UHGV virus genome: UHGV-2204358
Length of the DNA: 14,334 nucleotides
Direction: 5' to 3' (one strand)
From: a virus
Position numbers and translations under genes: made by a program. Below are positions 1 to 14,334 of this stretch, one piece after another; the first letter of the stretch is position 1, and every line of letters begins with the position of its first letter. The notes below the pieces were generated by a model, which worked only from the letters and a program-made list of their open reading frames with translations, ran no database searches and was not told where the DNA came from.

Positions 1-441
1 CTGGAAAGGCTGGGCCATACTCCTCCGGCAGAAGCAGAAAAAGCTTATTATGCTTCCATCGGAAACGATGATCTGGCAGCCTGAGTTCACAGATAAAATA
101 CTCTCCAGGAAACCCGGGGCGGTTCAGTGCTGGGAAGTCTGCGAATTAGAGAAAGCGTAAGCAAGATTGGGGGGAAAATCGGTAAACGTTTGGGCCATGA
201 AAAACAATGGTCACTACACGACCTTAGAAGAACGCTATCTACTCATCTAAGTGATCTCGGTGTTGAATTTTATGTAGTAGAACAACTGTTAGGCCATGCG
301 CTACCTGGCGTGGCGGGTGTTTACAACCGGAGTAAGTTTATGGCTAAAAAACTGGATGCTCTGGAACTCTGGACTACATATCTCAATAGCATCGCAGGTG
401 CTGATTCAAAAGTGACAATCCTCAAACAAAAGGCTGGTTAA
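1..441 (+). pseudogene. P4-type tyrosine integrase, C-terminal catalytic region only (ORF 127..441 from GTG); upstream reading frame interrupted, so probably a truncated or frameshifted integrase remnant
   Basis: Translation 127..441 shows the tyrosine-recombinase C-terminal signature (HDLRRT ... LLGHALPGVAGVYNRSKF). In-frame stops at 82-84 and 94-96 prevent upstream extension. Frame 2 upstream contains LSRKPG, which may be the displaced preceding integrase segment. Confidence 0.6.
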
Positions 442-442
442 C

Positions 443-673
443 ATGAAAAAAATGGCAATTGTTGATAAAAAGGGTCTGGAGTACATTCCTAACATCGATC
501 GTATGATCCGTGAGAAAGAATGTCGGGAGCTAACCACTCTTGCGAACAGCACACGCTGGAAGCTGGAGAAGGAAGGAAAATTTCCTAAGCGGATCAAGAT
601 TGGTTCCACTGCTGTTGCATATCGTCTTTCAGAAGTGCAGGCATGGATTCGAGGTGAGTGGGAAACGACTTAA
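443..673 (+). CDS. alpA: AlpA-family phage transcriptional regulator / excisionase-like HTH protein
   Basis: 76 aa ORF starting 2 nt after the integrase stop. Motif ELTTLANSTRWKLEKEGKFPKRIKIGSTAVAYRLSEVQAWI matches the AlpA (Phage_AlpA) helix-turn-helix pattern. Confidence 0.75.
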   Translation: MKKMAIVDKKGLEYIPNIDRMIREKECRELTTLANSTRWKLEKEGKFPKRIKIGSTAVAYRLSEVQAWIRGEWETT

Positions 674-690
674 CTATTAGGTGGGGCATT

Positions 691-1512
691 GTGGCTATAT
701 TTCATTATACAGATCTTTTTGGTTTGAAAGGTATATTAGACTCTAATTCTTTATGGGCTACAAATATATATTTCTTAAATGATAAAGAGGAGTCTAACCA
801 TGGATGTGAATGTTTTCGAAATACAATTAAAATAGTTGATGATAATATCATCCCAAAAGATAAGAAAACTATTTTGCTCAAGTCTCTTGACATGTATGAG
901 AAAGGGAAGTTACAAAAAGAAAAAGGGATTGATAAACATGTTTATAGCATATCTTTTTGTAAAGAAAACGATAAGTTAAGTCAGTGGAGAGGTTACGGAA
1001 ATAAACAGGGCGTTTGCATTGAATTTGATGCGGATGAACTTGTGAGTTTTTGTCAAAATATTTATTTAAATTGTGTTGCACATGATGTTATATATTCAAA
1101 TAATGACGATATTACAAAGATGAGTAAGGAGTTGGATGAGTTTTTTTCTTGTAATGGTATTAACATTAAAGAAATGAATGATCATTTTGTAACAATGGTC
1201 TCTACGTATCAATTTATATCTAAATATATCCCATTTTTTAAACATCCTAGTTTTATCGAAGAAAATGAATTTAGACTGGTGTTTACTCCGTGGATACAAA
1301 TGCCAGATGTGAAATTTAGAATAAATAATAATGGTATCATCCCTTATATCATTATTAATAATAAAGATAATAGAAAGTTACCAATTAAAAGCATTACAAT
1401 TGGCCCGACAAGCGATTATGATTTTATTGAGGCTGGTATAAAAATGTTTTTGGATTCAAGAGGATTTGGTTCTGTGGAAATTAAATCCTCATCAATTCCA
1501 TTCAGGGGGTAA
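691..1512 (+). CDS. DUF2971-like protein in AT-rich cargo segment; candidate accessory or anti-phage gene
   Basis: Long ORF (track 658..1512). Start most likely GTG 691, with AGGTGG 6 nt upstream at 679-684. N-terminal FHYT...GILDSNSLWATNIYFLNDKEE, mid SISFCKENDKLSQWRGYGNKQGVCIEFD and FKHPSFIEENEFRLVF resemble DUF2971 signatures recalled from memory. Sequence is visibly AT-rich, suggesting foreign origin. Confidence 0.6.
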   Translation: MAIFHYTDLFGLKGILDSNSLWATNIYFLNDKEESNHGCECFRNTIKIVDDNIIPKDKKTILLKSLDMYEKGKLQKEKGIDKHVYSISFCKENDKLSQWRGYGNKQGVCIEFDADELVSFCQNIYLNCVAHDVIYSNNDDITKMSKELDEFFSCNGINIKEMNDHFVTMVSTYQFISKYIPFFKHPSFIEENEFRLVFTPWIQMPDVKFRINNNGIIPYIIINNKDNRKLPIKSITIGPTSDYDFIEAGIKMFLDSRGFGSVEIKSSSIPFRG

Positions 1513-1557
1513 GGATTAACACTCTTAATCTATGATATTATAAAAATGGTAGATAAA

Positions 1558-1577
1558 GGCGACCAGAATTGGTCGCC
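1558..1577. terminator. Perfect 8-bp inverted repeat (GGCGACCA GAAT TGGTCGCC) between convergent genes; probable bidirectional or minus-strand intrinsic terminator
   Basis: Stem-loop seen directly. On the minus strand it is followed by a T-rich run (TTTATCTACCATTTTTATAAT). It lies 46 nt after the plus-strand stop at 1512 and 67 nt after the minus-strand stop at 1644. Confidence 0.45.
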
Positions 1578-1643
1578 AATGTGAGTATATAGTTAGCCTT
1601 AATCAGAATACGAGGTTATCGCCTGATAGGCAATGTGAACAGT

Positions 1644-2000
1644 TCAATATTTAGGTGGTTCAACAAGAGCGTTTATCATTGCTCTCAAATTATCGCGAAC
1701 ACTTATCCAAGTCTGTTCTGCTCGTTCTAACTCATCAGTGTACAACTTTAATGTTTTATCTATGCCATATGTGGCTATTAAATTTATAGCTTCTTGTAAT
1801 TTTTCGGGATTATTCCTTCTTGGGGGAGTGAATATACCGCGGATTTTTCCGGTAATTAAAGCTTTACGGTGTCTACATAGAATACCTTTACTTCCTGCTG
1901 GACAATTACAAGTCATGATTAGAGAGCCAGAATCGTTTGATACAGTGACTATGTATACATCCAAACTACTGCTACTTGTTGCGAAGAATTCGTATTTCAT
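1644..2000 (-). CDS. Small SWIM-type zinc-finger protein (C-x-C-x9-C-x-H), unknown function
   Basis: 118 aa ORF with strong RBS (AAGGAG, 7 nt before the ATG at 2000). Motif CNCPAGSKGILCRH fits the SWIM zinc-finger pattern CxCxnCxH. Lies 27 nt downstream of the RHH gene on the same strand (operon). Confidence 0.6.
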   Translation of the reverse strand: MKYEFFATSSSSLDVYIVTVSNDSGSLIMTCNCPAGSKGILCRHRKALITGKIRGIFTPPRRNNPEKLQEAINLIATYGIDKTLKLYTDELERAEQTWISVRDNLRAMINALVEPPKY

Positions 2001-2027
2001 GTGTTAGCTCCTTGACTTCAATTATTC

Positions 2028-2219
2028 TTATCCTTTTGGTTCAATACCGCGCCGTAGCAGCTCTTTGCGCCCTAATTCTTTAAGCCAGTTGGCTAGGCTT
2101 ATGCCGTCGCTCTGCGCTTCTTTGTCGAATTGCTCTTTTAGCTCTGGAGAAATTCGCATTCTGAATTGTGGAGATTGCCCATCACCCTTAGGACTTTTAT
2201 CGCGTTTGATCGTTGACAA
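2028..2219 (-). CDS. Arc/Mnt-like ribbon-helix-helix DNA-binding protein; candidate repressor or antitoxin
   Basis: C-terminal translation SPQFRMRISPELKEQFDKEAQSDGISLANWLKELGRKELLRRGIEPKG matches the Arc-type RHH pattern (PQFnlRlp.elke....A...g.S.N). Start is uncertain: TTG at 2219 with AGGTGG upstream, or ATG at 2159. The long 2028..2342 ORF in the track is probably an over-extension. Confidence 0.55.
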   Translation of the reverse strand: MSTIKRDKSPKGDGQSPQFRMRISPELKEQFDKEAQSDGISLANWLKELGRKELLRRGIEPKG

Positions 2220-2265
2220 GTGACCACCTATTGAATTAGCCTTTTCATTGTTAGGTGACCACCTT
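2220..2265. promoter_or_regulatory. Divergent promoter/operator region with two direct copies of GTGACCACCT (2220-2229 and 2256-2265)
   Basis: Repeats seen directly in the intergenic region between the minus-strand RHH gene and the plus-strand replication operon. A TTGACA hexamer lies at 2213-2218. Confidence 0.3.
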
Positions 2266-2358
2266 AACACGGAGGCACTTAAAAAAGCAAAGCCCGAAGG
2301 TGCTAGGAACACCAACGGGCTTCTAACCACCAACGATAGCAACAGTATCGAGGTAGCT

Positions 2359-2562
2359 ATGAGAAATCATACCACACACCCGCAAGGGCGGGACCCGCAC
2401 AACCTGAATAAATACATCTGGCGTTTTATCGCCCTGAGTACGGCACAACCGCGCGTGATTACCATCGAGGCCGCCAGCGAACAGGAAGCCCGGCTGCAAT
2501 CCCCAACTGGCTACGTGATGATATTCGCCGCCCGTATTCGTCAGGAGGTGTGCCATGAATGA
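2359..2562 (+). CDS. Small Icd-like (host cell division inhibitor-like) protein typical of P4-like satellites
   Basis: 67 aa from ATG 2359 with GAGGT RBS. Sequence MRNHTTHPQGRDPHNLNKYIWRFIALSTAQPRVITIEAASEQEARLQSPTGYVMIFAARIRQEV resembles, from memory, the small proteins annotated Icd-like in enterobacterial P4-like elements. The track ORF 2248..2562 is probably over-extended. Confidence 0.5.
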   Translation: MRNHTTHPQGRDPHNLNKYIWRFIALSTAQPRVITIEAASEQEARLQSPTGYVMIFAARIRQEVCHE

Positions 2563-2779
2563 TCTTTATTTTAAAGTGCTGACACATGCTGAAAACGCGC
2601 TCGTTTGTGGCAAAAATATGCGAGAAATCTTATCAACCTGGCTTGATGGGACAACAAATGCGGAACACGATGAACGGGATGCTAATTTAGCTGGAGCGTT
2701 AATTACGTTACTTGATCCTGTCATCAAAGAGCTGGATGAAGCTATAAAAATACACGACCAGAGCTATACCGGAGAATAA
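2555..2779 (+). CDS. Hypothetical small protein (74 aa), translationally coupled to the upstream gene
   Basis: ATG at 2555 overlaps the upstream stop (ATGAATGA). AGGAGG RBS at about 2543-2548. No recognisable domain. Confidence 0.55.
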   Translation: MNDLYFKVLTHAENALVCGKNMREILSTWLDGTTNAEHDERDANLAGALITLLDPVIKELDEAIKIHDQSYTGE

Positions 2780-2782
2780 AAA

Positions 2783-3070
2783 ATGAAAAATAAATTTTCT
2801 GGCTTTATTGCCAGCGGTCAAACTCATTCAAAAATCAGCCTTGGGGATATTTTCAAAGACAGCTATGGCTATCGGGTAAAGATTATTTCGGTTGATGATC
2901 GTCGTGTCTCTTATTTGCGTGATGGTTATGATTTTGAATGTGTTATGCCGCGTCAGCAGTTCGAAAGAGATTTCATTCTGGTAAAAAATTGCAAGACAGA
3001 TAATCAGAGGCGTGCCGCAGGCTATATCCGTAAAATTCGGGCAATGTTAGTTGCCGGAGGTAACAAATGA
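2783..3070 (+). CDS. Hypothetical small protein, DUF4222-like
   Basis: 95 aa ORF with GGAGAA RBS. Pattern YGYRVKIISVDDRRVSYLRDGYDFECVMPRQQFERDF resembles DUF4222 prophage proteins (recalled, not searched). Confidence 0.55.
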   Translation: MKNKFSGFIASGQTHSKISLGDIFKDSYGYRVKIISVDDRRVSYLRDGYDFECVMPRQQFERDFILVKNCKTDNQRRAAGYIRKIRAMLVAGGNK

Positions 3071-4887
3071 AACGTGCTCCGAACTTAAAATACCAACCGC
3101 GCGACAAAATGACGGAAGTCATCATTTTTGCTGGCAGTGATGCCTGGAGCCATGCAAAAGAATGGAATGAATGGGCAGGTAAGCATATTGCAGCAGATGA
3201 TACACCACCAGTCATTCTGGGTACGGAACAACTGGAAAACCTGGATGATATGCAAATTATCGATGAAGGCCGTCATTATGTGCGTGTTTATCGTGCCGGA
3301 AAGATTGCAGAGAAAAGTCTGACGAAGGTTGCGACATTACTTGCTATTGCAGGCGTAAAGGAAGCACGTTGTTACCGTAGCTTTGTTGATCGAGAGCCTG
3401 AAGACTGGACTCCGCGCCTTGTCGGCCTAAAAGCTGAAGCGGAGCATGGGGAAAGTCTGGTGATTGAACTGCCAGTGAAGAAGGCAGAGCGCAAAAATGA
3501 CGAGCGTGCTTCATCTTTGGCGTTGAATCAGATGGGGGCCAGCCAGCGCGGTGAAGTTCTCCTTGCACATTATGGCGGTGAACTGGCAATCAATGCCGAC
3601 TCTGACACCGTTCATCATTACAACGGCGTTGTATGGGAGCCGGTTCAGGATAAAGAGTTACAGCGTGCTATGGCGCAGATTTTCATTGATGCGGAGATCA
3701 GCTATTCGCAGAACGCTATTAAATCGGCGGTAGATACCATGAAGTTAAGTTTGCCTGTAATGGGGAATACAGCCCGTAACCTGATTGGATTCAGTAACGG
3801 GGTATTTGATACCAGAACTGGTAATTTTCGGGAGCATAACAAAAACGACTGGTTGTTAATTGCCAGTGAATTACCTTTCAGCCCACCAGCAGAGGGGGAA
3901 ACGCTGGCAACACATGCGCCGAATTTCTGGAAGTGGTTGCGCCGTTCGGTGGCTGAGAATGACCGCAAGGCAGATCGCGTACTGGCGGCATTATTCATGG
4001 TGCTGGCGAACCGGTACGACTGGCAGTTATTCATTGAGGTAACAGGGCCGGGGGGAAGTGGTAAAAGTGTGATGGCGGAGATTTGCACCATGCTGGCGGG
4101 TAAGGCTAATACAGTATCAGCAAGCATGAAGGCGCTGGAAGATGCAAGGGAACGTGCGTTAGTGGTTGGCTTTTCGCTGATTATCATGCCGGATATGACC
4201 CGCTACGCTGGTGATGGGGCAGGGATTAAGGCCATTACAGGCGGTGACAAGGTGGCAATTGACCCGAAACACAAAGCCCCCTATTCAACGCGTATTCCGG
4301 CAGTAGTGCTGGCGGTTAACAATAACGCCATGTCATTCAGTGACCGCAGCGGGGGGATCTCACGTCGTCGGGTGATATTCAATTTTTCGGAAGTTGTACC
4401 GGAGAACGAACGCGATTCGATGCTGGCGGAAAAAATAGAAGGTGAGCTGGCGGTAGTGATTCGTCATCTGCTTACACGGTTTGCTGATCAGGACGAAGCC
4501 AGACGCCTGTTATATGAGCAGCAGAAATCTGAAGAAGCACTGGCGATAAAGCGAGAGGGGGATTCGCTGGTGGACTTCTGCGGCTATCTCATGGCATCGG
4601 TAATGTGTGATGGCCTGTTAGTGGGTAATGCTGAAATTGTGCCATTCAGCCCACGCAGGTATCTCTATCATGCCTATCTGGCTTATATGAGGGCACATGG
4701 GTTTGGTAAACCTGTAACACTGACGCGCTTCGGTAAAGATATGCCGGGGGCAATGGCGGAATATGGCAGGGAGTATATGAAACGGAAAACGAAGCACGGT
4801 TTGCGTTCAAACGTGACACTGACGGAGGAATCAGAAGACTGGATGCCATCATGTGTATCGGTCACTAATGACGATAGCAAAAATTAA
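3067..4887 (+). CDS. Satellite replication protein: P4-alpha/D5-type primase-helicase (COG3378-like) with P-loop NTPase domain
   Basis: 606 aa ORF. Walker A motif VTGPGGSGKSV. Start ATG overlaps the previous stop (ATGA) with GGAGGT RBS. Followed immediately by an iteron array, the classic pri/rep-ori arrangement. Confidence 0.85.
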   Translation: MKRAPNLKYQPRDKMTEVIIFAGSDAWSHAKEWNEWAGKHIAADDTPPVILGTEQLENLDDMQIIDEGRHYVRVYRAGKIAEKSLTKVATLLAIAGVKEARCYRSFVDREPEDWTPRLVGLKAEAEHGESLVIELPVKKAERKNDERASSLALNQMGASQRGEVLLAHYGGELAINADSDTVHHYNGVVWEPVQDKELQRAMAQIFIDAEISYSQNAIKSAVDTMKLSLPVMGNTARNLIGFSNGVFDTRTGNFREHNKNDWLLIASELPFSPPAEGETLATHAPNFWKWLRRSVAENDRKADRVLAALFMVLANRYDWQLFIEVTGPGGSGKSVMAEICTMLAGKANTVSASMKALEDARERALVVGFSLIIMPDMTRYAGDGAGIKAITGGDKVAIDPKHKAPYSTRIPAVVLAVNNNAMSFSDRSGGISRRRVIFNFSEVVPENERDSMLAEKIEGELAVVIRHLLTRFADQDEARRLLYEQQKSEEALAIKREGDSLVDFCGYLMASVMCDGLLVGNAEIVPFSPRRYLYHAYLAYMRAHGFGKPVTLTRFGKDMPGAMAEYGREYMKRKTKHGLRSNVTLTEESEDWMPSCVSVTNDDSKN

Positions 4888-4900
4888 ACTTATGGAATAA

Positions 4901-5123
4901 CTGTTCACCACTGTTCACCCTGTCATAAATATCTTTTATATCAGTATATTATAGGGTGAACAGTTATTTATGAACTGTTCACCAAACTATTCACTGTTCA
5001 CCTTTTTGATTGTTTATTGAGCTTCAAGGGTGAACAGTGGTGAACAGTTGGTGAATAGTTTTTGTGAAACTGTTTACCCATTAACATTATGAATTAAAAG
5101 AGAAAATATCAAAAGGTGAACAG
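4901..5123. repeat. Iteron-type replication origin: at least 9 copies of 9-bp CTGTTCACC / GGTGAACAG in both orientations with AT-rich spacers
   Basis: CTGTTCACC at 4901, 4911, 4975, 4994. GGTGAACAG at 4955, 5029, 5039, 5115. Variants GGTGAATAG at 5050 and CTGTTTACC at 5070. Tandem pairs at 10-bp phasing. AT-rich stretch 4921-4954. Sits directly downstream of the primase-helicase gene. Confidence 0.7.
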
Positions 5124-5174
5124 ATGAAGGGTTAAAACGCAAAAATTTTAATTTACTGCTGTGAGATAAAGCCT

Positions 5175-5420
5175 ATGACAGCGAAGCACACAAAAAAATC
5201 ACAATCGCACGCCCTTGATTTGACGGAATACTGGTTAAGGGTGTCGATAAAAATCATCGACCGCAACGCCGGGGAAGGATACGCGAAAGCACATCCCGAA
5301 CTGATTAGCGCATTCATGACAACGGCGGCTGCAAACTTTGCCACTCTGACCGAACGGGAGATTGCTGAAGCGGAGGAAGTGACAACAATCAATATTAAGT
5401 CCGGAGAGCAGGCCGCATGA
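5175..5420 (+). CDS. Hypothetical protein (81 aa)
   Basis: ORF whose stop overlaps the start of the SSB-like gene (ATGA). No recognisable domain. Confidence 0.5.
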   Translation: MTAKHTKKSQSHALDLTEYWLRVSIKIIDRNAGEGYAKAHPELISAFMTTAAANFATLTEREIAEAEEVTTINIKSGEQAA

Positions 5421-5866
5421 CGGCGCAAATATCAGTTTACGGGCGGTCGGTGGACGACCCGCAGACAAAACAGACCAGCAAGGGCACCCCCATGACGTTG
5501 GCGCGTATGGCGGTATCACTGCCCTGCAGTCAGTCGGATGACGGTCAGGCGACGATGTGGTTATCTGTCCTGGCGTTTGGCAGACAAGCCGACGCGCTGG
5601 CAAAGCATCACAAAGGCGAACTCCTGAGCGTGGCGGGTAACATGCAGATGAGCCAGTGGACTGGACAGAACGGCGAAACGCGGCAGGGCTGGCAGGTTAT
5701 CGCAGACAGCGTAATCAGTGCGCGATCGGTGCGACCGGGCGGCAATAAAGGCCAACAGGGGCAGGCTACTGACGCACTGAACAGAGCAAAACAACAGGCA
5801 GATCAGCAAGGAAGCCAGCCACCAGTGGGAGATAATGAGCAATGGGGAGATGATATCCCGTTTTAA
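5417..5866 (+). CDS. ssb: SSB-like single-stranded DNA-binding protein with conserved C-terminal acidic DDIPF tail
   Basis: 149 aa. OB-fold-like N-terminal region (ISVYGR...TMWLSVLAFGRQA...GNMQMSQWTGQNGETRQGWQVIADSV), Gly/Gln-rich linker, and the protein ends in WGDDIPF, the hallmark SSB C-terminal tip. Confidence 0.75.
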   Translation: MTAQISVYGRSVDDPQTKQTSKGTPMTLARMAVSLPCSQSDDGQATMWLSVLAFGRQADALAKHHKGELLSVAGNMQMSQWTGQNGETRQGWQVIADSVISARSVRPGGNKGQQGQATDALNRAKQQADQQGSQPPVGDNEQWGDDIPF

Positions 5867-5885
5867 ATATTGCCAATAAAAAAAG

Positions 5886-5909
5886 GCCGGAAAAAATAAA
5901 TTTTCCGGC
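5886..5909 (+). terminator. Stem-loop (GCCGGAAAA AATAAA TTTTCCGGC) after the SSB-like gene; probable intrinsic terminator
   Basis: 9-bp inverted repeat seen directly, 20 nt after the stop at 5866. Separates the replication operon from the capsid-gene pair. Confidence 0.45.
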
Positions 5910-6083
5910 ATGCTACATAAATCCCGACCAAAGGGAGTGAAGATATTAACACTAATTGTCCGCACTGAAGTTGTCACCCCAAAACTTTATACAACATTGC
6001 ACTCGGTTGCATGTGTTCGCATGACAAATATCGGTGATAGCATATATCCACAATTATTTTTAATGAATGCAAAGAGGATGCGT

Positions 6084-7124
6084 ATGGTTGATTTATATTC
6101 GCCTACTCAGCTTGTACAGGTGGTTAATGCTGTAGATGTACAAAAAAAATTAAATGCGTTGTTTACCAGTTTGTTTTTCACTCGCTCGGTAATGTTTGAA
6201 TCGAGAGACATTATTCTTGATACGATCGACGATCCAAATATCCCGATCGCGGCGTTTTGCTCTCCTATGGTGGGCAGTAAAGTTTCACGAGATGAGGGAT
6301 ACGAATCAAAAACAATTCGTCCAGGTTATATGAAGCCGAAAAGCAGCATTGATCCAAATAAGTTAGCTGTGCGCCCTGTTGGTGTGTCACCTGAGCAATA
6401 CAATGCTTTTGGGGCGCGTAATATTAAAGTTAAACAGGCGATTGTAAATCAGGCTAAAGCTATTCGTGCACGTATTGAATGGCTTGCTGTTCAGGCAATC
6501 ACAACGGGGAAAAATATCATTGAGGGCGATGGTATTGAACGTTATGAGCTGGACTGGAATATAAAACCACAAAATATCATCACTCAGTCTGGCGGTACTG
6601 AGTGGTCAGGTAAGGATAAAGAAACTTTTGATCCAAATGATGATATTGAGAGCTACGCAGAATTTAGTGAGGGCGTCACTAATATCATCATTATGGGTGG
6701 TAATGTATGGAAGAAATACCGTTCATTCAGAGCGATAAAAGAGGCTTTGGATACCCGTCGTGGTTCTAATTCCGAACTGGAAACGGCCCTTAAAGACCTT
6801 GGTGATTCGGTGAGTTTTAAAGGGTATATGGGCGATGTTGCGATTGTTGTTTACAGCGGGCGTTATACCGACGAGGACGGAACAGAAAAACATTTCCTTG
6901 ATCCTGATTTGATGGTGCTTGGCAATACGGCTCTTCAGGGGATTGTCGCCTATGGCGGTATTCAGGATCCGGAGCTAATCCGAATGGGGCTGACTAAAGC
7001 CGAACTTGCACCGAAAAACTATATTGTGCCTGGTGATCCGGCTATTGAATATGTGCAGACACATTCAGCACCACAGCCAATACCGGCCCGCATCAATCGT
7101 TTTGTTACCGTTCGCATTGGCTAA
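6084..7124 (+). CDS. Lambda gpE-like major capsid protein homolog (Phage_cap_E family), diverged copy encoded by the island
   Basis: Translation aligns along its length with lambda gpE (GYMKPK, ITQSGGTEWS, DTRRGSNSELETA, AIVVYSG), at roughly half identity by eye to the prophage E copy at 9861..10649. Start placed at ATG 6084 (AAGAGG RBS, matches the gpE N-terminus MVDLYSPTQL). The track start at 5910 gives an unsupported N-terminal extension. Confidence 0.85.
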   Translation: MVDLYSPTQLVQVVNAVDVQKKLNALFTSLFFTRSVMFESRDIILDTIDDPNIPIAAFCSPMVGSKVSRDEGYESKTIRPGYMKPKSSIDPNKLAVRPVGVSPEQYNAFGARNIKVKQAIVNQAKAIRARIEWLAVQAITTGKNIIEGDGIERYELDWNIKPQNIITQSGGTEWSGKDKETFDPNDDIESYAEFSEGVTNIIIMGGNVWKKYRSFRAIKEALDTRRGSNSELETALKDLGDSVSFKGYMGDVAIVVYSGRYTDEDGTEKHFLDPDLMVLGNTALQGIVAYGGIQDPELIRMGLTKAELAPKNYIVPGDPAIEYVQTHSAPQPIPARINRFVTVRIG

Positions 7125-7133
7125 GGGGGAGCA

Positions 7134-7475
7134 ATGGCTACTCATTACACTGAACTCATGGCTGGCACTGAAGCACTGGTGACTACGCTGGGGATATTTT
7201 CAGCTAATAAAGGGGTAATTCCTGCATTTACGCCACTGATGCAGGAAGATGCAACAGGTGCACTGGTGGTATGGGATGGTTCGAGCGTAGGTAAAGCGGT
7301 TTATGTTTCCGCTGTACAAATCGACACCGCGAAAAAAACACAGGCTCAGGTCTATAAGACAGGTGTCTTAAATGTTGATGCTCTGAACTGGCCTGAGTCT
7401 GTTAAAGAACTGTCAGTAAAGGTTGCAGCGTTTGTTGGCTCAGGTATTTCTGTTCAGCCGCTGGCTCGTGTGTAA
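7134..7475 (+). CDS. Lambda gpD-like head decoration protein homolog
   Basis: 113 aa. TPLMQEDATGALVVWDGSSVGKAV ... WPE ... AFVGSGISV parallels lambda gpD ([25 protein letters not shown] ... WPE ... AFAGTAISIV). Strong RBS AAGGGGGAG. Confidence 0.75.
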   Translation: MATHYTELMAGTEALVTTLGIFSANKGVIPAFTPLMQEDATGALVVWDGSSVGKAVYVSAVQIDTAKKTQAQVYKTGVLNVDALNWPESVKELSVKVAAFVGSGISVQPLARV

Positions 7476-7486
7476 AGGGGGATACA

Positions 7487-7870
7487 ATGCAGAATGATTA
7501 CAATGACCTTAAGCCAATTGCCGAAATGATGTACCCGAATCCAGCTGTAGAGGAATTAAAAGCTATCGCTGACAAAATGTGTTTAAGCGAGCGCCTTGTT
7601 GATATGAATCAGGTGATGGAAATTACAACCCTGAGTCGTCGTACACTGCTAAACCTTGAGGCTAGTGGAGAGTTCCCGGAGCGTGTGCAGGTTACGGAAG
7701 GGCGTAAGGCCTGGTATTTAAGTGAAGTGATCGACTGGATAAATAATATTCCTCGCGCTTCTGAATATTGCCGCGTACCTGTCCCAAAAAAGCCAGATGC
7801 GGCGCTATGCCTCAAGATTGAGCGTGTACGCCGCAATGCACGGGATGGTCGCTATAAGCTGATTGGTTGA
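7487..7870 (+). CDS. Second AlpA/Vis-like HTH DNA-binding protein (127 aa)
   Basis: Central segment MNQVMEITTLSRRTLLNLEASGEFPERVQVTEGRKAWYLSEVIDWI matches the AlpA-family HTH pattern. RBS AAGGGGGA. Confidence 0.6.
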   Translation: MQNDYNDLKPIAEMMYPNPAVEELKAIADKMCLSERLVDMNQVMEITTLSRRTLLNLEASGEFPERVQVTEGRKAWYLSEVIDWINNIPRASEYCRVPVPKKPDAALCLKIERVRRNARDGRYKLIG

Positions 7871-8795
7871 TGAAATTAGGGCCCGCTCTGGCTGGCGGGT
7901 CCTTTCCGGCGATCCAGAACGTTACGGGGCGTCAGGCGCGCAGTTTTTCTCTATTTATGGAAATTTTCCGGTTTAAGGCTTTTCCGTTCTTCTTCGCCGT
8001 AACTTTATGTTTTTATTTAAAATACCCCCTGAAAAGAAAGGAAATGACAGGCGCTGAAAACGGGCTTTTTGGCCTCTGCCGTTTCCTTTCTCTGATTTTG
8101 TTGCTGTTTGTCACGGCCTATCGCCAGAAAAAACTCTCATGCTTGCGTTGAAATCAGGCTCTACACTAAAGTAGTCGATAACGCGCCACTGGCTTCACTT
8201 TATGGTCGTGGCCTACTTCTGCACTATCGCAACAGCCTTACGAGTCCTGCTGGTAAGCTGTTGAGTAAGCAGAATACGGATTACAGGGCATCCTATGCGT
8301 ATTGTGGCGGATCGAACACAACCGCTCAGGTGAAACCCGTTTCGTTACTATTATAGGAAAATCTTCATACCCAACTTGCTTGATAACTTCTTCTGGTTGT
8401 TTTAACCATGTAGAGATGATATTTCCCTGAAAAATTGCTTTCCCTCTGACTAGATGCGCATACCACATTTTGTCTTCGACATAGAACCGCGCAGAAATGA
8501 TTACTCCACAGATACGGTTCTTTCGTCAATTCATTATGGAATGGGCTCAAAAGGGAGAGCTCAACAATAAAGTTCTGGTAGGATAATTGTATGCTTACAA
8601 TTGTAATGAAAGGAGAGTTAGAGCCTGGTGTGATTCTGTGTGTAAAATTTTAGCAAATTACGTTTAATTAAGTGTCGTAACACACCATGCCTGTCAGATA
8701 TTACGCTTATCATAGAGTGTATGATATTGCTTTTCTAAACAATAAGCTGTTATATTTTATGGGTATTGTGTTTAATTTTTAATGACGGCTCTAAC

Positions 8796-9731
8796 ATGAC
8801 CCCTGATGCAGTTTTGATTGCTAAAGCAATACTAATGTTGAAAGCAGATGTTGATTATACAAAAGATTATGTATTCCCTATTGCATTATCTTTTTTATCG
8901 GCGCTTATGGGAGGCTTAACTGCTTATTGCATCAATAATAGGCAGGAGAAGATTAAAATAGAAACGGAGAAATTTAATTCTGCTAATACGCTTATGATGG
9001 TTTCTTTTCAGATGATAAATACACTTGTGGGAATTAAAAGTAGTTATATTGGTTTGAGATCTAGAAATCCAATATTAAGAGCGCTGGCAATAAATGAATT
9101 TTTATTTAACGCCGGGGAGGTAAATTTCGATATTAGCCGTCTTTCATTTATAAAAAAGATACCCACAGCTAATAAATCTCTATTTGAGAGGTTTGTTTTT
9201 TTTATTAAGTACAAGATACTAAAACATGAACTTATTATGCCGTCAGATGAAGAAATTGGAAAGTCATGGAGGAATATTGCTCGAATTGATGCTTTTTTGT
9301 TTAATTATAATTTTGTTTTGAAAAGTTTAATTGTCAGGAATCAGCTTGATTCAGATTTAAAGAAACGTTTGTCTAATATTGCCAGTAAAGACAAGCCAGT
9401 GTTTGAAATTAAATTGGATGAAATAAAGAAAGAAATTGGTGCTAGTGAGTTGTCAAAATATATTGATTTGACAGAAAGTATAGTGGCGTTGATCGATTAT
9501 CTCATAAGGGAAATTGATTCATTTATTATGGAGTTCCCGAAGGTAGCGGAAAGTAATATTGAGTTATCTAAGGTGAATAAAGCTAAATTATCAACAATTG
9601 TTCTCAATAAGCCAGCATATTTGGCTGCATTGATTCCAATTCCACAACCTGACTTTGAATTAGTATCTTTACTAGTGGGTATGAGCCCAGAAGAAGCAAA
9701 GCAAAGATATTCGTATTCTGGTTGGCACTAG
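8796..9731 (+). CDS. Hypothetical AT-rich protein with a predicted N-terminal transmembrane helix; function unknown
   Basis: Long ORF (track 8766..9731 from TTG; ATG at 8796 preferred). Hydrophobic segment VFPIALSFLSALMGGLTAYCI. Strongly AT-rich, unlike the flanking DNA. No recognisable domain. Confidence 0.6.
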   Translation: MTPDAVLIAKAILMLKADVDYTKDYVFPIALSFLSALMGGLTAYCINNRQEKIKIETEKFNSANTLMMVSFQMINTLVGIKSSYIGLRSRNPILRALAINEFLFNAGEVNFDISRLSFIKKIPTANKSLFERFVFFIKYKILKHELIMPSDEEIGKSWRNIARIDAFLFNYNFVLKSLIVRNQLDSDLKKRLSNIASKDKPVFEIKLDEIKKEIGASELSKYIDLTESIVALIDYLIREIDSFIMEFPKVAESNIELSKVNKAKLSTIVLNKPAYLAALIPIPQPDFELVSLLVGMSPEEAKQRYSYSGWH

Positions 9732-9860
9732 TAGATATAGTGACATACCTTTGCGAAGCGCTGTATTGCTACGTGTATTGCTTTTTAGCTGTATTTTGAT
9801 AGAGAGAGCCATTTATTTCATTAAAAATCATTCAGTTCCTTTCATATTTGACTCATGTAA

Positions 9861-10649
9861 CCCAAGCATGAGGTGAATCCGCAGATGACCCTGCGTCGCC
9901 TGCCGGATGAAGATCCGCAGAATCTGGCGGACCCGGCTTACCGCCGCCGTCGCATCATCATGCAGAACATGCGTGACGAAGAGCTGGCCATTGCTCAGGT
10001 CGAAGAGATGCAGGCAGTTTCTGCCGTGCTTAAGGGCAAATACACCATGACCGGTGAAGCCTTCGATCCGGTTGAGGTGGATATGGGCCGCAGTGAGGAG
10101 AATAACATCACGCAGTCCGGCGGCACGGAGTGGAGCAAGCGTGACAAGTCCACGTATGACCCGACCGACGATATCGAAGCCTACGCGCTGAACGCCAGCG
10201 GTGTGGTGAATATCATCGTGTTCGATCCGAAAGGCTGGGCGCTGTTCCGTTCCTTCAAAGCCGTCAAGGAGAAGCTGGATACCCGTCGCGGCTCTAATTC
10301 CGAGCTGGAGACAGCGGTAAAAGACCTGGGCGAAGCGGTGTCCTATAAGGGAATGTATGGCGATACGGCGATCGTCGTGTATTCCGGACAGTACGTGGAA
10401 AACGACGTCAAAAAGAACTTCCTGCCGGACAACACGATGGTGCTGGGGAACACTCAGGCACGCGGTCTGCGCACCTATGGCTGCATTCAGGATGCGGACG
10501 CACAGCGCGAAGGTATTAACGCCTCTGCCCGCTACCCGAAAAACTGGGTGACCACCGGCGATCCGGCGCGTGAGTTCACCATGATTCAGTCAGCACCGCT
10601 GATGCTGCTGGCTGACCCTGATGCGTTCGTGTCCGTACAACTGGCGTAA
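9861..10649 (+). pseudogene. E: Lambda major capsid protein E, 5'-truncated (lacks about the first 80 codons)
   Basis: Translation from 9861 (PKHEVNPQMTLRRLPDEDPQ ... FVSVQLA) is near-identical to lambda gpE from about residue 80 to the C-terminus. A TAA stop at 9858-9860 and unrelated AT-rich DNA lie immediately upstream. The only in-frame start is GTG 9873. Confidence 0.8.
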
Positions 10650-10690: not shown

Positions 10691-11089
10691 ATGACGAAAG
10701 ATGAACTGATTGCCCGTCTCCGGTCGCTGGGTGAACAACTGAACCGTGATGTCAGCCTGACGGGGACGAAAGAAGAACTGGCGCTCCGTGTGGCAGAGCT
10801 GGAAGAGGAGCTTGATGACACGGATGAAACTGCCGGTCAGGACACCCCTCTCAGCCGGGAAAATGTGCTGACCGGACATGAAAATGAGGTGGGATCAGCG
10901 CAGCCGGATACCGTGATTCTGGATACGTCTGAACTGGTCACGGTCGTGGCACTGGTGAAGCTGCATACTGATGCACTTCACGCCACGCGGGATGAACCTG
11001 TGGCATTTGTGCTGCCGGGAACGGCGTTTCGTGTCTCTGCCGGTGTGGCAGCCGAAATGACAGAACGTGGCCTGGCCAGAATGCAATAA
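10691..11089 (+). CDS. FI: Lambda FI (DNA-packaging / head assembly protein)
   Basis: MTKDELIARLRSLGEQLNRDVSLTGTKEELALRVAELEEELDD... matches lambda gpFI. GGAGGAG RBS before ATG 10691. The track ORF starting at 10652 is over-extended. Confidence 0.85.
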   Translation: MTKDELIARLRSLGEQLNRDVSLTGTKEELALRVAELEEELDDTDETAGQDTPLSRENVLTGHENEVGSAQPDTVILDTSELVTVVALVKLHTDALHATRDEPVAFVLPGTAFRVSAGVAAEMTERGLARMQ

Positions 11090-11100
11090 CGGGAGGCACT

Positions 11101-11454
11101 GTGGCTGATTTCGATAACCTGTTCGATGCTGCCATTGCCCGCGCCGATGAAACGATACGCGGGTACATGGGAACGTCAGCCACCATGACATCCGGTGAGC
11201 AGTCAGGTGCGGTGATACGTGGTGTTTTTGATGACCCTGAAAATATCAGCTATGCCGGACAGGGCGTGCGCGTTGAAGGCTCCAGCCCGTCCCTGTTTGT
11301 CCGGACTGATGATGTGCGGCAACTGCGGCGTGGAGACACGCTGACCATCGGTGAGGAAAACTTCTGGATAGACCGGGTTTCGCCGGATGATGGCGGAAGC
11401 TGTCATCTCTGGCTTGGGCGGGGCGTACCGCCTGCCGTTAACCGTCGCCGCTGA
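11101..11454 (+). CDS. FII: Lambda FII (head-tail joining protein)
   Basis: MADFDNLFDAAIARADETIRGYMGTSATMTSGEQSGAVIRGVFDD... matches lambda gpFII. GTG start with GGGAGG RBS. Confidence 0.85.
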   Translation: MADFDNLFDAAIARADETIRGYMGTSATMTSGEQSGAVIRGVFDDPENISYAGQGVRVEGSSPSLFVRTDDVRQLRRGDTLTIGEENFWIDRVSPDDGGSCHLWLGRGVPPAVNRRR

Positions 11455-11465
11455 AAGGGGGATGT

Positions 11466-12044
11466 ATGGCCATAAAAGGTCTTGAGCAGGCCGTTGAAAA
11501 CCTCAGCCGTATCAGCAAAACGGCGGTGCCCGGTGCCGCCGCAATGGCCATTAACCGCGTTGCTTCATCCGCGATATCGCAGTCGGCGTCACAGGTTGCC
11601 CGTGAGACAAAGGTACGCCGGAAACTGGTAAAGGAAAGGGCCAGGCTGAAAAGGGCCACGGTCAAAAATCCGCAGGCCAGAATCAAAGTTAACCGGGGGG
11701 ATTTGCCCGTAATCAAGCTGGGTAACGCGCGGATTGTCCTGTCCCGACGCAGGCGTCGTAAAAAGGGGCAGCGTTCAGCCCTGAAAGGTGGCGGCAGCGT
11801 GCTTGTGGTGGGAAACCGTCGTATTCCCGGCGCGTTTATTCAGCAACTGAAAAATGGCCGGTGGCATGTCATGCAGCGTGTGGCCGGGAAAAACCGTTAC
11901 CCCATTGATGTAGTGAAAATCCCGATGGCGGTGCCGCTGACCACGGCGTTTAAACAAAATATTGAGCGGATACGGCGTGAACGTCTTCCGAAAGAGCTGG
12001 GCTATGCGCTGCAGCATCAACTGAGGATGGTAATAAAGCGATGA
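11466..12044 (+). CDS. Z: Lambda Z (tail completion protein)
   Basis: MAIKGLEQAVENLSRISKTAVPGAAAMAINRVASSAISQSASQVARETKV... matches lambda gpZ. Confidence 0.85.
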   Translation: MAIKGLEQAVENLSRISKTAVPGAAAMAINRVASSAISQSASQVARETKVRRKLVKERARLKRATVKNPQARIKVNRGDLPVIKLGNARIVLSRRRRRKKGQRSALKGGGSVLVVGNRRIPGAFIQQLKNGRWHVMQRVAGKNRYPIDVVKIPMAVPLTTAFKQNIERIRRERLPKELGYALQHQLRMVIKR

Positions 12045-12436
12045 AACATACTGAACTCCGTGCAGCCGTACTGGATGCACTGGAGAAGCATGACACCGGG
12101 GCGACGTTTTTTGATGGTCGCCCCGCTGTTTTTGATGAGGCGGATTTTCCGGCAGTTGCCGTTTATCTCACCGGCGCTGAATACACGGGCGAAGAGCTGG
12201 ACAGCGATACCTGGCAGGCGGAGCTGCATATCGAAGTTTTCCTGCCTGCTCAGGTGCCGGATTCAGAGCTGGATGCGTGGATGGAGTCCCGGATTTATCC
12301 GGTGATGAGTGATATCCCGGCACTGTCAGATTTGATCACCAGTATGGTGGTCAGTGGCTATGACTACCGGCGCGACGATGATGCGGGCCTGTGGAGTTCA
12401 GCCGATATGACTTATGTCATTACCTATGAAATGTGA
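12041..12436 (+). CDS. U: Lambda U (tail terminator protein)
   Basis: [54 protein letters not shown]... matches lambda gpU. Start overlaps the Z stop (ATGA). Confidence 0.85.
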
Positions 12437-12443
12437 GGACGCT

Positions 12444-13184
12444 ATGCCTGTACCAAATCCTACAATGCCGGTGAAAGGTGCCGGGACCACCCTGTGGGTT
12501 TATAAGGGGAGCGGTGACCCTTATGCGAATCCGCTTTCAGACGTTGACTGGTCGCGTCTGGCAAAAGTTAAAGACCTGACGCCCGGCGAACTGACCGCTG
12601 AGTCCTATGACGACAGCTATCTCGATGATGAAGATGCAGACTGGACTGCGACCGGGCAGGGGCAGAAATCTGCCGGAGATACCAGCTTCACGCTGGCGTG
12701 GATGCCCGGAGAGCAGGGGCAGCAGGCGCTGCTGGCGTGGTTTAATGAAGGCGATACCCGTGCCTATAAAATCCGCTTCCCGAACGGCACGGTCGATGTG
12801 TTCCGTGGCTGGGTCAGCAGTATCGGTAAGGCGGTGACGGCGAAGGAAGTGATCACCCGCACGGTGAAAGTCACCAATGTGGGCCGTCCGTCGATGGCAG
12901 AAGATCGCAGCACGGTAACAGCGGCAACCGGCATGACCGTGACGCCTGCCAGCACCTCGGTGGTGAAAGGGCAGAGCACCACGCTGACCGTGGCCTTCCA
13001 GCCGGAGGGCGTAACCGACAAGAGCTTTCGTGCGGTGTCTGCGGATAAAACAAAAGCCACCGTGTCGGTCAGTGGTATGACCATCACCGTGAACGGCGTT
13101 GCTGCAGGCAAGGTCAACATTCCGGTTGTATCCGGTAATGGTGAACTTGCTGCGGTTGCAGAAATCACCGTCACCGACAGTTAA
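12444..13184 (+). CDS. V: Lambda V (major tail tube protein with C-terminal Ig-like domain)
   Basis: [50 protein letters not shown]... matches lambda gpV. GAGGA RBS before ATG 12444. The track start at 12414 is over-extended. Confidence 0.85.
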
Positions 13185-13199
13185 TCCGGAGAGTCAGCG

Positions 13200-13622
13200 A
13201 TGTTCCTGAAAACCGAATCATTTGAACATAACGGCGTGACCGTCACGCTTTCTGAACTGTCAGCCCTGCAGCGTATTGAGCATCTTGCCTGGTTGAAAGA
13301 GCAGGAAAAAAAGGCTGAATCCAGTGGCAACCTGCAGGTGTCTGTAGAGGCGCTTATCAGAGGCGGGGCGTTTCTGGTGGCGATGTCTCTGTGGCATAAC
13401 CATCCACAGAAGACAAAGCTGCCGTCCATGAATGAAGCCATTACGCAGATTGAGCAGGAAGTGCTTACCACCTGGCCCACGGAGGCAATTGCTCAGGCTG
13501 AAAACGTGGTGTTACGTCTGTCCGGAATGTCTGAGTTTGTGGTGAATAATGCCCCTGAACAGGCAGAGGACGCCGGGCCTGCAGAGCCTGTTTCTGCGGG
13601 AAAGTGTTCGACGGTGAGCTGA
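13200..13622 (+). CDS. G: Lambda G (tail assembly chaperone)
   Basis: MFLKTESFEHNGVTVTLSELSALQRIEHLAWLKEQEKKAESSGN ... SAGKCSTVS matches lambda gpG. Confidence 0.85.
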   Translation: MFLKTESFEHNGVTVTLSELSALQRIEHLAWLKEQEKKAESSGNLQVSVEALIRGGAFLVAMSLWHNHPQKTKLPSMNEAITQIEQEVLTTWPTEAIAQAENVVLRLSGMSEFVVNNAPEQAEDAGPAEPVSAGKCSTVS

Positions 13623-14038
13623 GTTTTGCCCTGAAACTGGCGCGTGAGATGGGGCGACCCGACTGGCGCGCCATGCTTGCCGGGATGTCATCCACGGAGT
13701 ATGCCGACTGGCACCGCTTTTACAGTACCCATTATTTTCATGATGTTCTGCTGGATATGCACTTTTCCGGGCTGACGTACACCGTACTCAGCCTGTTTTT
13801 CAGCGATCCGGATATGCATCCGCTGGATTTCAGTCTGCTGAACCGGCGCGAGGCTGACGAAGAGCCTGAAGATGATGTGCTGATGCAGAAAGCGGCAGGG
13901 CTTGCCGGAGGCGTTCGTTTTGGCCCGGACGGGAATGAAGTTATCCCTACTTCCCCGGATGTGGCGGACATGACGGAGGATGACGTAATGCTGATGACAG
14001 TATCAGAAGGGATCGCAGGAGGAGTCCGGTATGGCTGA
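13200..14038 (+). CDS. GT: Lambda G-T tail assembly chaperone fusion made by programmed -1 ribosomal frameshift (T portion 13604..14038 in the -1 frame)
   Basis: Slippery heptamer G GGA AAG at 13598-13604 near the end of G. The -1 frame continues as VFDGELSFALKLAREMGRPDWRAMLAGMSS..., matching lambda gpT, and ends at TGA 14036-14038. Confidence 0.7.
13598..13604 (+). other. Programmed -1 frameshift slippery site GGGAAAG
   Basis: Heptamer present in the G frame (codons gcG GGA AAG), exactly where lambda G-T frameshifting occurs. Confidence 0.7.
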
Positions 14039-14334
14039 ACCGGTAGGCGATCTGGTCGTTGATTTGAGTCTGGATGCGGCCAGATTTGACGAGCAGATGG
14101 CCAGAGTCAGGCGTCATTTTTCCGGTACGGAAAGTGATGCGAAAAAAACAGCGGCAGTCGTTGAACAGTCGCTGAGCCGACAGGCGCTGGCTGCACAGAA
14201 AGCGGGGATTTCCGTCGGGCAGTATAAAGCCGCCATGCGTATGCTGCCTGCACAGTTCACCGACGTGGCCACGCAGCTTGCAGGCGGGCAAAGTCCGTGG
14301 CTGATCCTGCTGCAACAGGGTGGTCAGGTTAAGG
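14031..14334 (+). CDS. H: Lambda H tape measure protein, N-terminal part (continues beyond window end)
   Basis: ATG 14031. Translation MAEPVGDLVVDLSLDAARFDEQMARVRRHFSGTESDAKKTAAVVEQSLSRQALAAQKAGISVGQYKAAMRMLPAQFTDVATQLAGGQSPWLILLQQGGQVK matches the lambda gpH N-terminus. No stop before the window end. Confidence 0.85.
   Translation, partial: MAEPVGDLVVDLSLDAARFDEQMARVRRHFSGTESDAKKTAAVVEQSLSRQALAAQKAGISVGQYKAAMRMLPAQFTDVATQLAGGQSPWLILLQQGGQVK

Follow-up and report, generated by a model that had tools for sequence, protein, structure and literature searches.

The 14,334-nucleotide stretch of the viral genome UHGV-2204358 analysed here (the window) contains a close relative of the phage lambda major capsid gene E that starts abruptly in the middle of its reading frame, and the question is whether this gene was truncated or was split by a mobile element. 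The first-pass annotation, which saw the letters alone, took it for a 5' truncation of a prophage capsid gene at a junction with foreign DNA. We are instead highly confident that positions 9859-9868 are the right-hand crossover core (attR) of a helper-embedded phage-inducible chromosomal island (HE-PICI) of the 11capE type (site E:Phage_cap_E:80). This satellite, about 10.4 kb long, would be inserted co-oriented in E codon ~80 of a lambdoid helper prophage, with its integrase gene (int) cut by an insertion sequence (IS) and E probably permanently split. The structure is that of a member of a family published in 2023 by Tommasini, Mageeney & Williams (PMC10111431); what is new for this copy is the IS-cut integrase. 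The remaining interest of the locus lies in the IS-locked state, in the recurrent lesions of int and in a satellite-specific variant of the cos site.

Megablast against phage records placed the start of the lambda homology at window 9855, which corresponds to lambda 6364, inside gene E (6135-7160) at about codon 77. The letters across the junction are ATG TAA CCC AAG CAT GAG GTG, where the TAA occupies 9858-9860 and the residues P K H E V run from 9861; the E homology sets in abruptly at window ~9859. The fragment from 9864 to 10649 is identical to lambda gpE residues 81-341 at 257 of 261 positions (98% protein identity), and across 9600-10000 the GC content rises from 0.30-0.35 to 0.55-0.58. 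These results bore out the earlier description of E homology that begins near residue 80 after a TAA and AT-rich DNA, and of the DNA to its left as foreign. Whatever the frame, residues 1-80 of gpE matched the window only in the island's own capsid gene, hereafter E', at 6087-6338 (a score of 101, against 50 or less for shuffled controls), and neither strand contained a single 12-mer from the first 228 nt of lambda E; a frameshifted upstream part of E hidden in the window is thereby excluded. No upstream head gene of the helper was found within the window either. Downstream of E, the late genes are co-oriented with the island, with full-length open reading frames (ORFs) for FI, FII, Z, U, V, G and T and with H running past the window end, and the tail genes do look as intact as had been noted. 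End-to-end matches to window 9790-9900, at 96-99% identity, came from 17 genomes.

The missing half of the gene was found in related strains. In all of the five collinear E. coli genomes examined (isolate 07-4299, WP7-S17-ESBL-04, LR-50, MN06021 and NRG 857C), a 246-bp gene annotated "major capsid protein, missing C-terminus" stands directly upstream of a tyrosine integrase gene. The decoration and protease genes (D, C) precede this 5' fragment of E in the four loci with a longer left flank, and portal, W, terminase and Nu1 lie further left in 07-4299 and NRG 857C. About 10.4 kb on, the five genomes have a "major capsid protein, missing N-terminus" followed by FI, FII, Z, U, V, G, T and H; for the part of E seen in the window, the annotation given in relatives is "major capsid protein, incomplete, missing N-terminus". 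The truncation was thus not borne out: a site-specific insertion separates the two parts of E, with the 5' part and the head genes to the left of the island's integrase.

The crossover sites at the two island ends were then defined by comparison of the collinear loci (labelled L below). In L001 and L002, each island end has the canonical 10-bp core, AGCCGAAGCA, which together with its flanks reads GTCA-AGCCGAAGCA-CTTAGC at the left junction (attL) and CATGT-AGCCGAAGCA-TGAAGTG at attR. When the two cores of L001, which lie 10,367 bp apart, were joined in silico, a 1026-bp ORF of 341 aa with 99.8% nucleotide identity to lambda E was obtained. The core of the window, AACCCAAGCA, is a variant that differs from the canonical one at 2 of 10 positions and is followed by GAG instead of GAA. 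This variant allele occupies both ends in MN06021 (L005), and LR-50 (L004) is a hybrid with a canonical attL (about 1900-1910) and a variant attR (about 13070-13080), which have only AAGCA in common. The hybrid may reflect a strand exchange confined to the right-hand AAGCA, but a later homologous exchange could explain it equally well.

The second landmark is the arm motif of the integrase family. Published members have the doubled motif tgTGTATTGCantgTGTATTGCa on both sides of the attP centre, at a distance of 81 ± 2 bp on the upstream side and 132 ± 2 bp on the downstream side (PMC10111431). The window has one exact match to the doubled motif, where 0.01 would be expected by chance, and the end of this match is 82.5 bp from the centre of the attR core. 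L001, L002, L004 and L005 each have exactly two copies, one within either end of the island, and the second copy in L001 starts 133.5 bp past the attL core centre. A 14-nt inverted match to the attR core at 8136-8149 was dropped as being near chance (about 0.35 expected by our own estimate). Apart from the site at E codon ~80 with its 10-bp block and the arm motif at the published spacing, the window has attR next to codons 80-341 of E, and FI to H come after these codons on the strand of the main island genes, as in the HE-PICIs. The general plan of Gram-negative PICIs was present as well. By the description of Fillol-Salom et al. 2018, such islands measure 10-20 kb, have int with alpA at one end, a primase-type replication module and a cos or terS packaging signal, and are mostly unidirectional; here the distance between the cores is 10,367 bp in L001, and a cos-like segment is the candidate signal.

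The closest described element is the type element, Eco567.11capE of E. coli NRG 857C, for which the site E:Phage_cap_E:80 and a 10-bp identity block were reported (PMC10111431). It is like the window island in target gene and codon, in the 10-bp block, in the doubled TGTATTGC motif and its spacing, in the backbone (DUF4222, primase, 81-aa ORF, SSB, E', a head-decoration gene D' and a 127-aa helix-turn-helix (HTH) protein) and in the orientation to the helper late operon. NRG 857C 11capE holds 81-100% of the window 17-mers per 500-bp bin across 2501-5000, and the late zone also shares most 17-mers. The two differ in the core (AGCCGAAGCA in 11capE, AACCCAAGCA in the window), in the variable zone (about 500-2500) and in the right-end cargo (about 8000-9850), where 11capE holds other genes; the latter two differences match the "dynamic" zones of PMC10111431. 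They also differ in that the window int is cut by an IS629-like element, a state not described for this site in the main text of PMC10111431.

How common is this arrangement? Probes of 59 and 60 nt specific to the junctions were searched for in 5426 complete genomes of E. coli. The attL junction was present in 174 (about 3%) and the canonical attR in 131, the latter being a lower bound since variant cores lower the megablast coverage, while 2063 (38%) had the uninterrupted E site; some genomes had more than one place matching the junction probes. In PMC10111431, 201 instances in E were counted. By these numbers the arrangement is common. For annotation this matters, because a "partial major capsid protein" pseudogene here marks an att junction and not decay, and such a fragment of E is by itself no ground for calling a prophage defective.

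The junction is a clean case of a satellite aimed at the capsid gene of its own helper prophage. The proposed mechanism, which follows the published model for the family, ties helper capsid production to the excision of the satellite through its insertion in the helper's E. As long as the satellite is integrated, E would be split and not expressible. Upon induction, the composite of prophage and satellite would excise and replicate, late (Q-antiterminated) transcription would run into int and alpA of the satellite and trigger its excision, and precise excision would rebuild E; to read FI to J while the satellite is still in place, late transcription would also have to pass through the whole island. 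The satellite would then be packaged by helper proteins through its cos-like site. In NRG 857C treated with mitomycin C, the composite was reported to excise and replicate, followed by a later and precise excision of the satellite (detected at 2 h) that restored the capsid gene (PMC10111431). No terminator-like site was found in 7400-10000 of the window, where 2.1 would be expected, and this is weakly consistent with read-through.

In this copy the switch seems to be broken. The IS transposase C-terminus occupies positions 1-81, with its stop codon at 82-84, and the terminal inverted repeat ends with ...CCCGGGGCGGTTCA at 126 (last letters GGTTCA). Bases 1-122 gave 100% matches at places annotated "IS3 family transposase", and the IS end, 98.6% identical to an element annotated IS629 OrfB, was matched in 4059 of the 5426 E. 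coli genomes at a median of 3 places each. The window is collinear with four intact int genes only from 121-127 on. The 315 nt of int that survive are 98.6% identical to int of NRG 857C (98.6-99% to int of NRG 857C and others, counted from 121); the ancestry is clear from this match, and the fragment, residues ~308-411, may belong to the integrase clade of 11capE. Pfam Phage_integrase covered the fragment only with profile positions 108-169 of 172. Gone from it are both the arm-binding and the core-binding domain as well as the region of the first catalytic Arg. Because the IS leaves only Int residues ~308-411, this satellite copy has probably lost the ability to excise by itself, and E is probably split for good. 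The earlier statement that the prophage lacks an intact capsid gene therefore needs to be divided: for the family it is true only conditionally, since excision restores E, but for this copy it probably holds. The reason, an integrase cut by an IS that ends at base 126, had escaped the first-pass annotation.

The IS/int junction itself was also looked for elsewhere. No complete E. coli genome covered at least 80% of window 1-330, and an exact 44-mer had no match in the genome contig or metagenome contig collections. An exact-protein look-up recovered the junction in draft contigs, which begin at the IS end, and the junction is also shared by an ENA metagenome scaffold; draft assemblies break at the IS. 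One of the draft contigs, the NCBI isolate contig GCA_030200525.1 (L010), starts within that IS end and matches window 17-10015 without a single difference. Beyond this point (L010 10000-10425 against window 10016-10440), the identity that holds through the island and the first ~150 bp of the E fragment gives way to 20 mismatches in ~400 bp, which suggests a different helper allele, recombination inside E or a collapse of several prophage copies in the draft assembly.

Damage to int is not confined to one kind of event. L010 and L011 have the same IS629-like end in int as the window, L013 (1-31) has an IS2-like end 1 bp from the window's IS position, and L009 (1126-3714) has an IS66 within int. 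In L012 (about 2000-2150) a deletion junction in int lies beside phage lysis genes and Bor, and in L008 (6090-7324) int is a split ORF. The independent lesions fall within about 80 bp of one point, a clustering that could come from an insertion hot spot or from selection that favoured locking more than once. Since these copies were collected through the fragment ORF itself, they say nothing about the frequency of such lesions. The IS-cut integrase illustrates how a reversible switch can freeze and leave a prophage without its own capsid gene beside a conserved satellite substitute, and the frozen switch offers a testable case of satellite/helper co-evolution.

The alternative that survives best concerns this switch: if the cell holds another HE-PICI of this clade, its integrase could act on the island in trans, the IS insertion would be without effect, and E would still be restored on induction. 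The alpA gene, the arm motif and the attR core are intact, several places match the junction probes in some E. coli genomes, and hosts with several HE-PICIs have been described (PMC10111431). We nevertheless consider a working switch improbable here, as the window shows no second integrase and only residues ~308-411 of the first, and attL may not survive beyond the IS.

Loss of the head module together with the 5' end of E through a deletion or truncation, with unrelated foreign DNA now adjoining the remainder, would explain why the window has neither, and the IS at the left edge might have mediated further rearrangement. This is very unlikely, in our judgement. The attR core of a site-specific element lies exactly, to the base, at the break, 131 or more complete genomes have this same junction, the five relatives examined have intact head genes immediately to the left of the island, in-silico excision restores E exactly, and a random deletion would not be expected to leave an arm motif at exactly the published spacing.

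The break also falls at a sequence motif that E and E' have in common, and the first-pass annotation had wondered whether it was the footprint of a rearrangement between them. At this place E and E' have 8 nt in common, AAGCCGAA, and both code for GY(V/M)KPK. Homologous or illegitimate recombination at the motif deserves hardly any credence, however, because the nucleotide identity between E and E' stops after these 8 nt, E' is complete 2.7 kb away and conserved in all 10 loci compared, what stands left of the junction is the non-coding end of the island with its arm motif and not E', with no hybrid E'/E frame, and attL joins E to DNA upstream of int and not to E'. The break coincides with the 10-bp identity block of attL and attR. 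At the position equivalent to att, E' reads AAGCCGAAAAGCAGC where E reads AAGCCGAAGCATGAA and so lacks the full core; a difference at this position was likewise reported for the capsid gene of 11capE itself (PMC10111431). An assembly artefact or chimera can be set aside, since attR and attL recur in 131 and 174 closed genomes from many groups and the independent isolate contig described above has the same sequence over 17-10015.

Several points weigh against the reading of the locus as an HE-PICI with a locked integrase. The attL site and the 5' parts of E and int lie outside the window, so that the left half of the island is taken for this genome from its relatives, and what lies left of the IS is likewise beyond the window, a simple insertion and an IS-mediated deletion or inversion being both compatible with its right end. 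The attR core deviates from the canonical one at two positions, though the same allele is found at both ends in MN06021. Integrase from a second HE-PICI could act in trans, as discussed. Finally, the authors of PMC10111431 could not recover particles of 11capE or of its helper, so that even in the type element helper dependence and packaging have yet to be proved.

The features of the window are collected in Table 1.

Table 1 Features of the 14,334-nt window, from left to right (positions in the window).
Feature	Position	Strand	Basis
Right end of IS3-family (IS629-like) insertion sequence	1-126	+	Database matches
3' fragment of satellite tyrosine integrase gene (Int residues ~308-411 of 411)	127-441	+	Alignment with intact int
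alpA (excisionase / transcriptional activator of Gram-negative PICIs)	443-673	+	Pfam Phage_AlpA E=3e-15; PHROG 2790 "excisionase and transcriptional regulator"
Variable ("dynamic") zone	658-2562	.	Pfam/PHROG and annotations in L002, L004
DUF2971 protein (variable zone)	658-1512	+	
SWIM zinc-finger protein (variable zone)	1644-2000	-	
Arc-like ORF (variable zone)	2028-2342	-	
Icd-like / repressor-like ORF (variable zone)	2248-2562	+	
Replication zone including small ORFs	2555-5866	+	Pfam D5_N, DUF5906, Pox_D5, SSB
DUF4222 protein (replication zone)	2783-3070	+	
D5_N/Pox_D5 primase-helicase	3067-4887	+	Pfam
81-aa ORF (replication zone)	5175-5420	+	
SSB	5417-5866	+	Pfam
E', satellite major capsid gene, 346 aa	6084-7124	+	43% identical to lambda gpE; Pfam Phage_cap_E E=9e-41
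D', satellite head-decoration gene, 113 aa	7134-7475	+	38% identical to gpD over 78 aa; Pfam HDPD E=4.5e-15
Second AlpA-family HTH protein, 127 aa, directly 5' of cos-like site	7487-7870	+	Pfam Phage_AlpA; PDB 8c3t E=2e-9; PHROG 2790 E=1e-49
cos-like segment	7895-8101	+	Local alignment to helper cos region
Low-GC cargo ORF, right end	8766-9731	+	PHROG 21267 (unknown function) E=1e-132
Doubled arm motif TGTATTGC-N4-TGTATTGC, HE-PICI attP hallmark	9762-9781	+	Single exact match in window
attR core (identity block) AACCCAAGCA, E codons 79-82	9859-9868	+	attL/attR comparison
3' part of helper prophage major capsid gene E (codons 80-341)	9861-10649	+	Lambda alignment
Helper late genes FI, FII, Z, U, V, G, G-T, start of H	10691-14334	+	ORFs and annotations of collinear loci

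The island does carry a complete but diverged homologue of E, as had been noticed earlier. E' was intact in all of the 10 loci compared, and pairwise dN/dS values of 0.04-0.09 (from pairs that are not independent) point to strong purifying selection; by its sequence E' looks functional. One possible interpretation is that E' and D' may serve as a backup capsid or an interfering one.

Downstream of D' lies the putative packaging signal of the satellite. The cos-like segment is identical to the helper cos in L001 and L006 at 182-184 of 206 positions (~89%), and the flanks of the satellite cos on the cosQ and cosB sides are conserved. The 12-nt cosN core (7927-7938) is GGGCGTCAGGCG where lambda has GGGCGGCGACCT, 5 of the 12 positions being different, and the same variant was present in five other islands (L001, L004, L008, L009 and L010). 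Lambda cosN had no match within 2 mismatches anywhere in the window; the cos-like site was found only through alignment with the helper cos. Inside the segment, an imperfect inverted repeat of 26 nt (77% complementary, 5-nt spacer) at 8035-8091 occupies a cosB-proximal position, which in the helper is just upstream of Nu1, and is conserved with the helper sequence.

A broader reading of these observations is doubtful, though worth stating. Recurrent loss of int might turn a reversible switch into a permanent split of the helper's E; in such locked composites the helper's capsid might come to be built from the strongly conserved E' and D', making a satellite/helper chimera, or the lock might be a selected route by which host or satellite disarms the prophage. 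Separately, the cosN variant GGGCGTCAGGCG might give the satellite cohesive ends distinct from those of its helper.

Elements that split a gene and rebuild it are known from other bacteria: the skin element of B. subtilis in sigK and the Listeria phage phi10403S in comK interrupt a gene that a timed, precise excision restores. The window island differs from both in that the split gene belongs to another mobile element, the helper phage, the timing would serve the satellite and not the host, and the switch is probably broken in this copy. Satellites of the P4 type carry Sid, Psu and Delta genes, and a P4-like satellite was rejected because none of these families appeared in Pfam and PHROG scans of the island ORFs, in which not every small ORF was included. 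The capsid set of the capsid-forming PICIs (cf-PICIs) comprises portal, protease/scaffold, terminase and connectors. A cf-PICI, as summarised in the preprint, encodes all proteins needed to build and fill its own capsids (bioRxiv 10.1101/2022.09.08.507074). The window island is not of this kind, as only E-like and D-like genes, and no portal, protease, terminase or connector family, were found among the scanned ORFs.

Two other PICIs offer partial parallels for the capsid genes. EcCICFT073 (PMC6092414; PMC6739421) resembles the window island in its int-alpA pair, primase-type module, homologues of capsid (c1499) and decoration (c1500) proteins, cos-type signal and lambdoid helpers, but PICIs other than the HE-PICIs sit in chromosomal genes apart from the helper (per PMC10111431). 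EcCICFT073 keeps cosQ and cosN and alters cosB, which is read by Rpp-TerS, whereas the window island keeps the cosB flank and alters the 12-mer of cosN. It is packaged as phage-sized DNA (PMC6092414), and a PICI with its capsid gene knocked out was still transferred, according to the passage of PMC10111431 that cites the EcCICFT073 study for this. SaPIbov5 Ccm is likewise a satellite-encoded diverged homologue of the helper major capsid protein, as outlined in PMC6092414; in the same outline Ccm makes small capsids, while EcCICFT073, with its E/D-type homologues, packages phage-sized DNA. The 127-aa HTH protein next to the cos-like site was considered as a candidate Rpp, but this was unsupported: no Rpp chain was among its PDB sequence matches, of which the only significant one was an AlpA-family protein, and no search was aimed at Rpp homologues.

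The remaining genes of the island belong mostly to its two exchangeable zones, and no Rfam family reached the gathering score within the window. The cargo ORF at the right end encodes 321 aa, or 311 aa from the start at 8796 that is annotated in relatives, and its GC content is about 0.30-0.33. It had no Pfam or PADLOC match, but it may be an anti-phage gene, since other islands have DUF262 and HEPN (NRG 857C), Abi_C (L009) or DUF2971 (L002) in that slot. The variable zone near the left end is shared with L002, L004 and L013 and is not found in the type specimen L006. PADLOC gave weak matches of the DUF2971, SWIM and HTH proteins to candidate-system (PDC) models only. Just 3' of alpA, the DUF2971 gene and the divergent SWIM gene lie in DNA of very low GC content (down to 0.27), and the weak PADLOC matches of this pair were to PDC-S31 and PDC-S62. 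In L008 and L009, the same variable slot is occupied by a CAP12-PCTIR TIR-domain protein.

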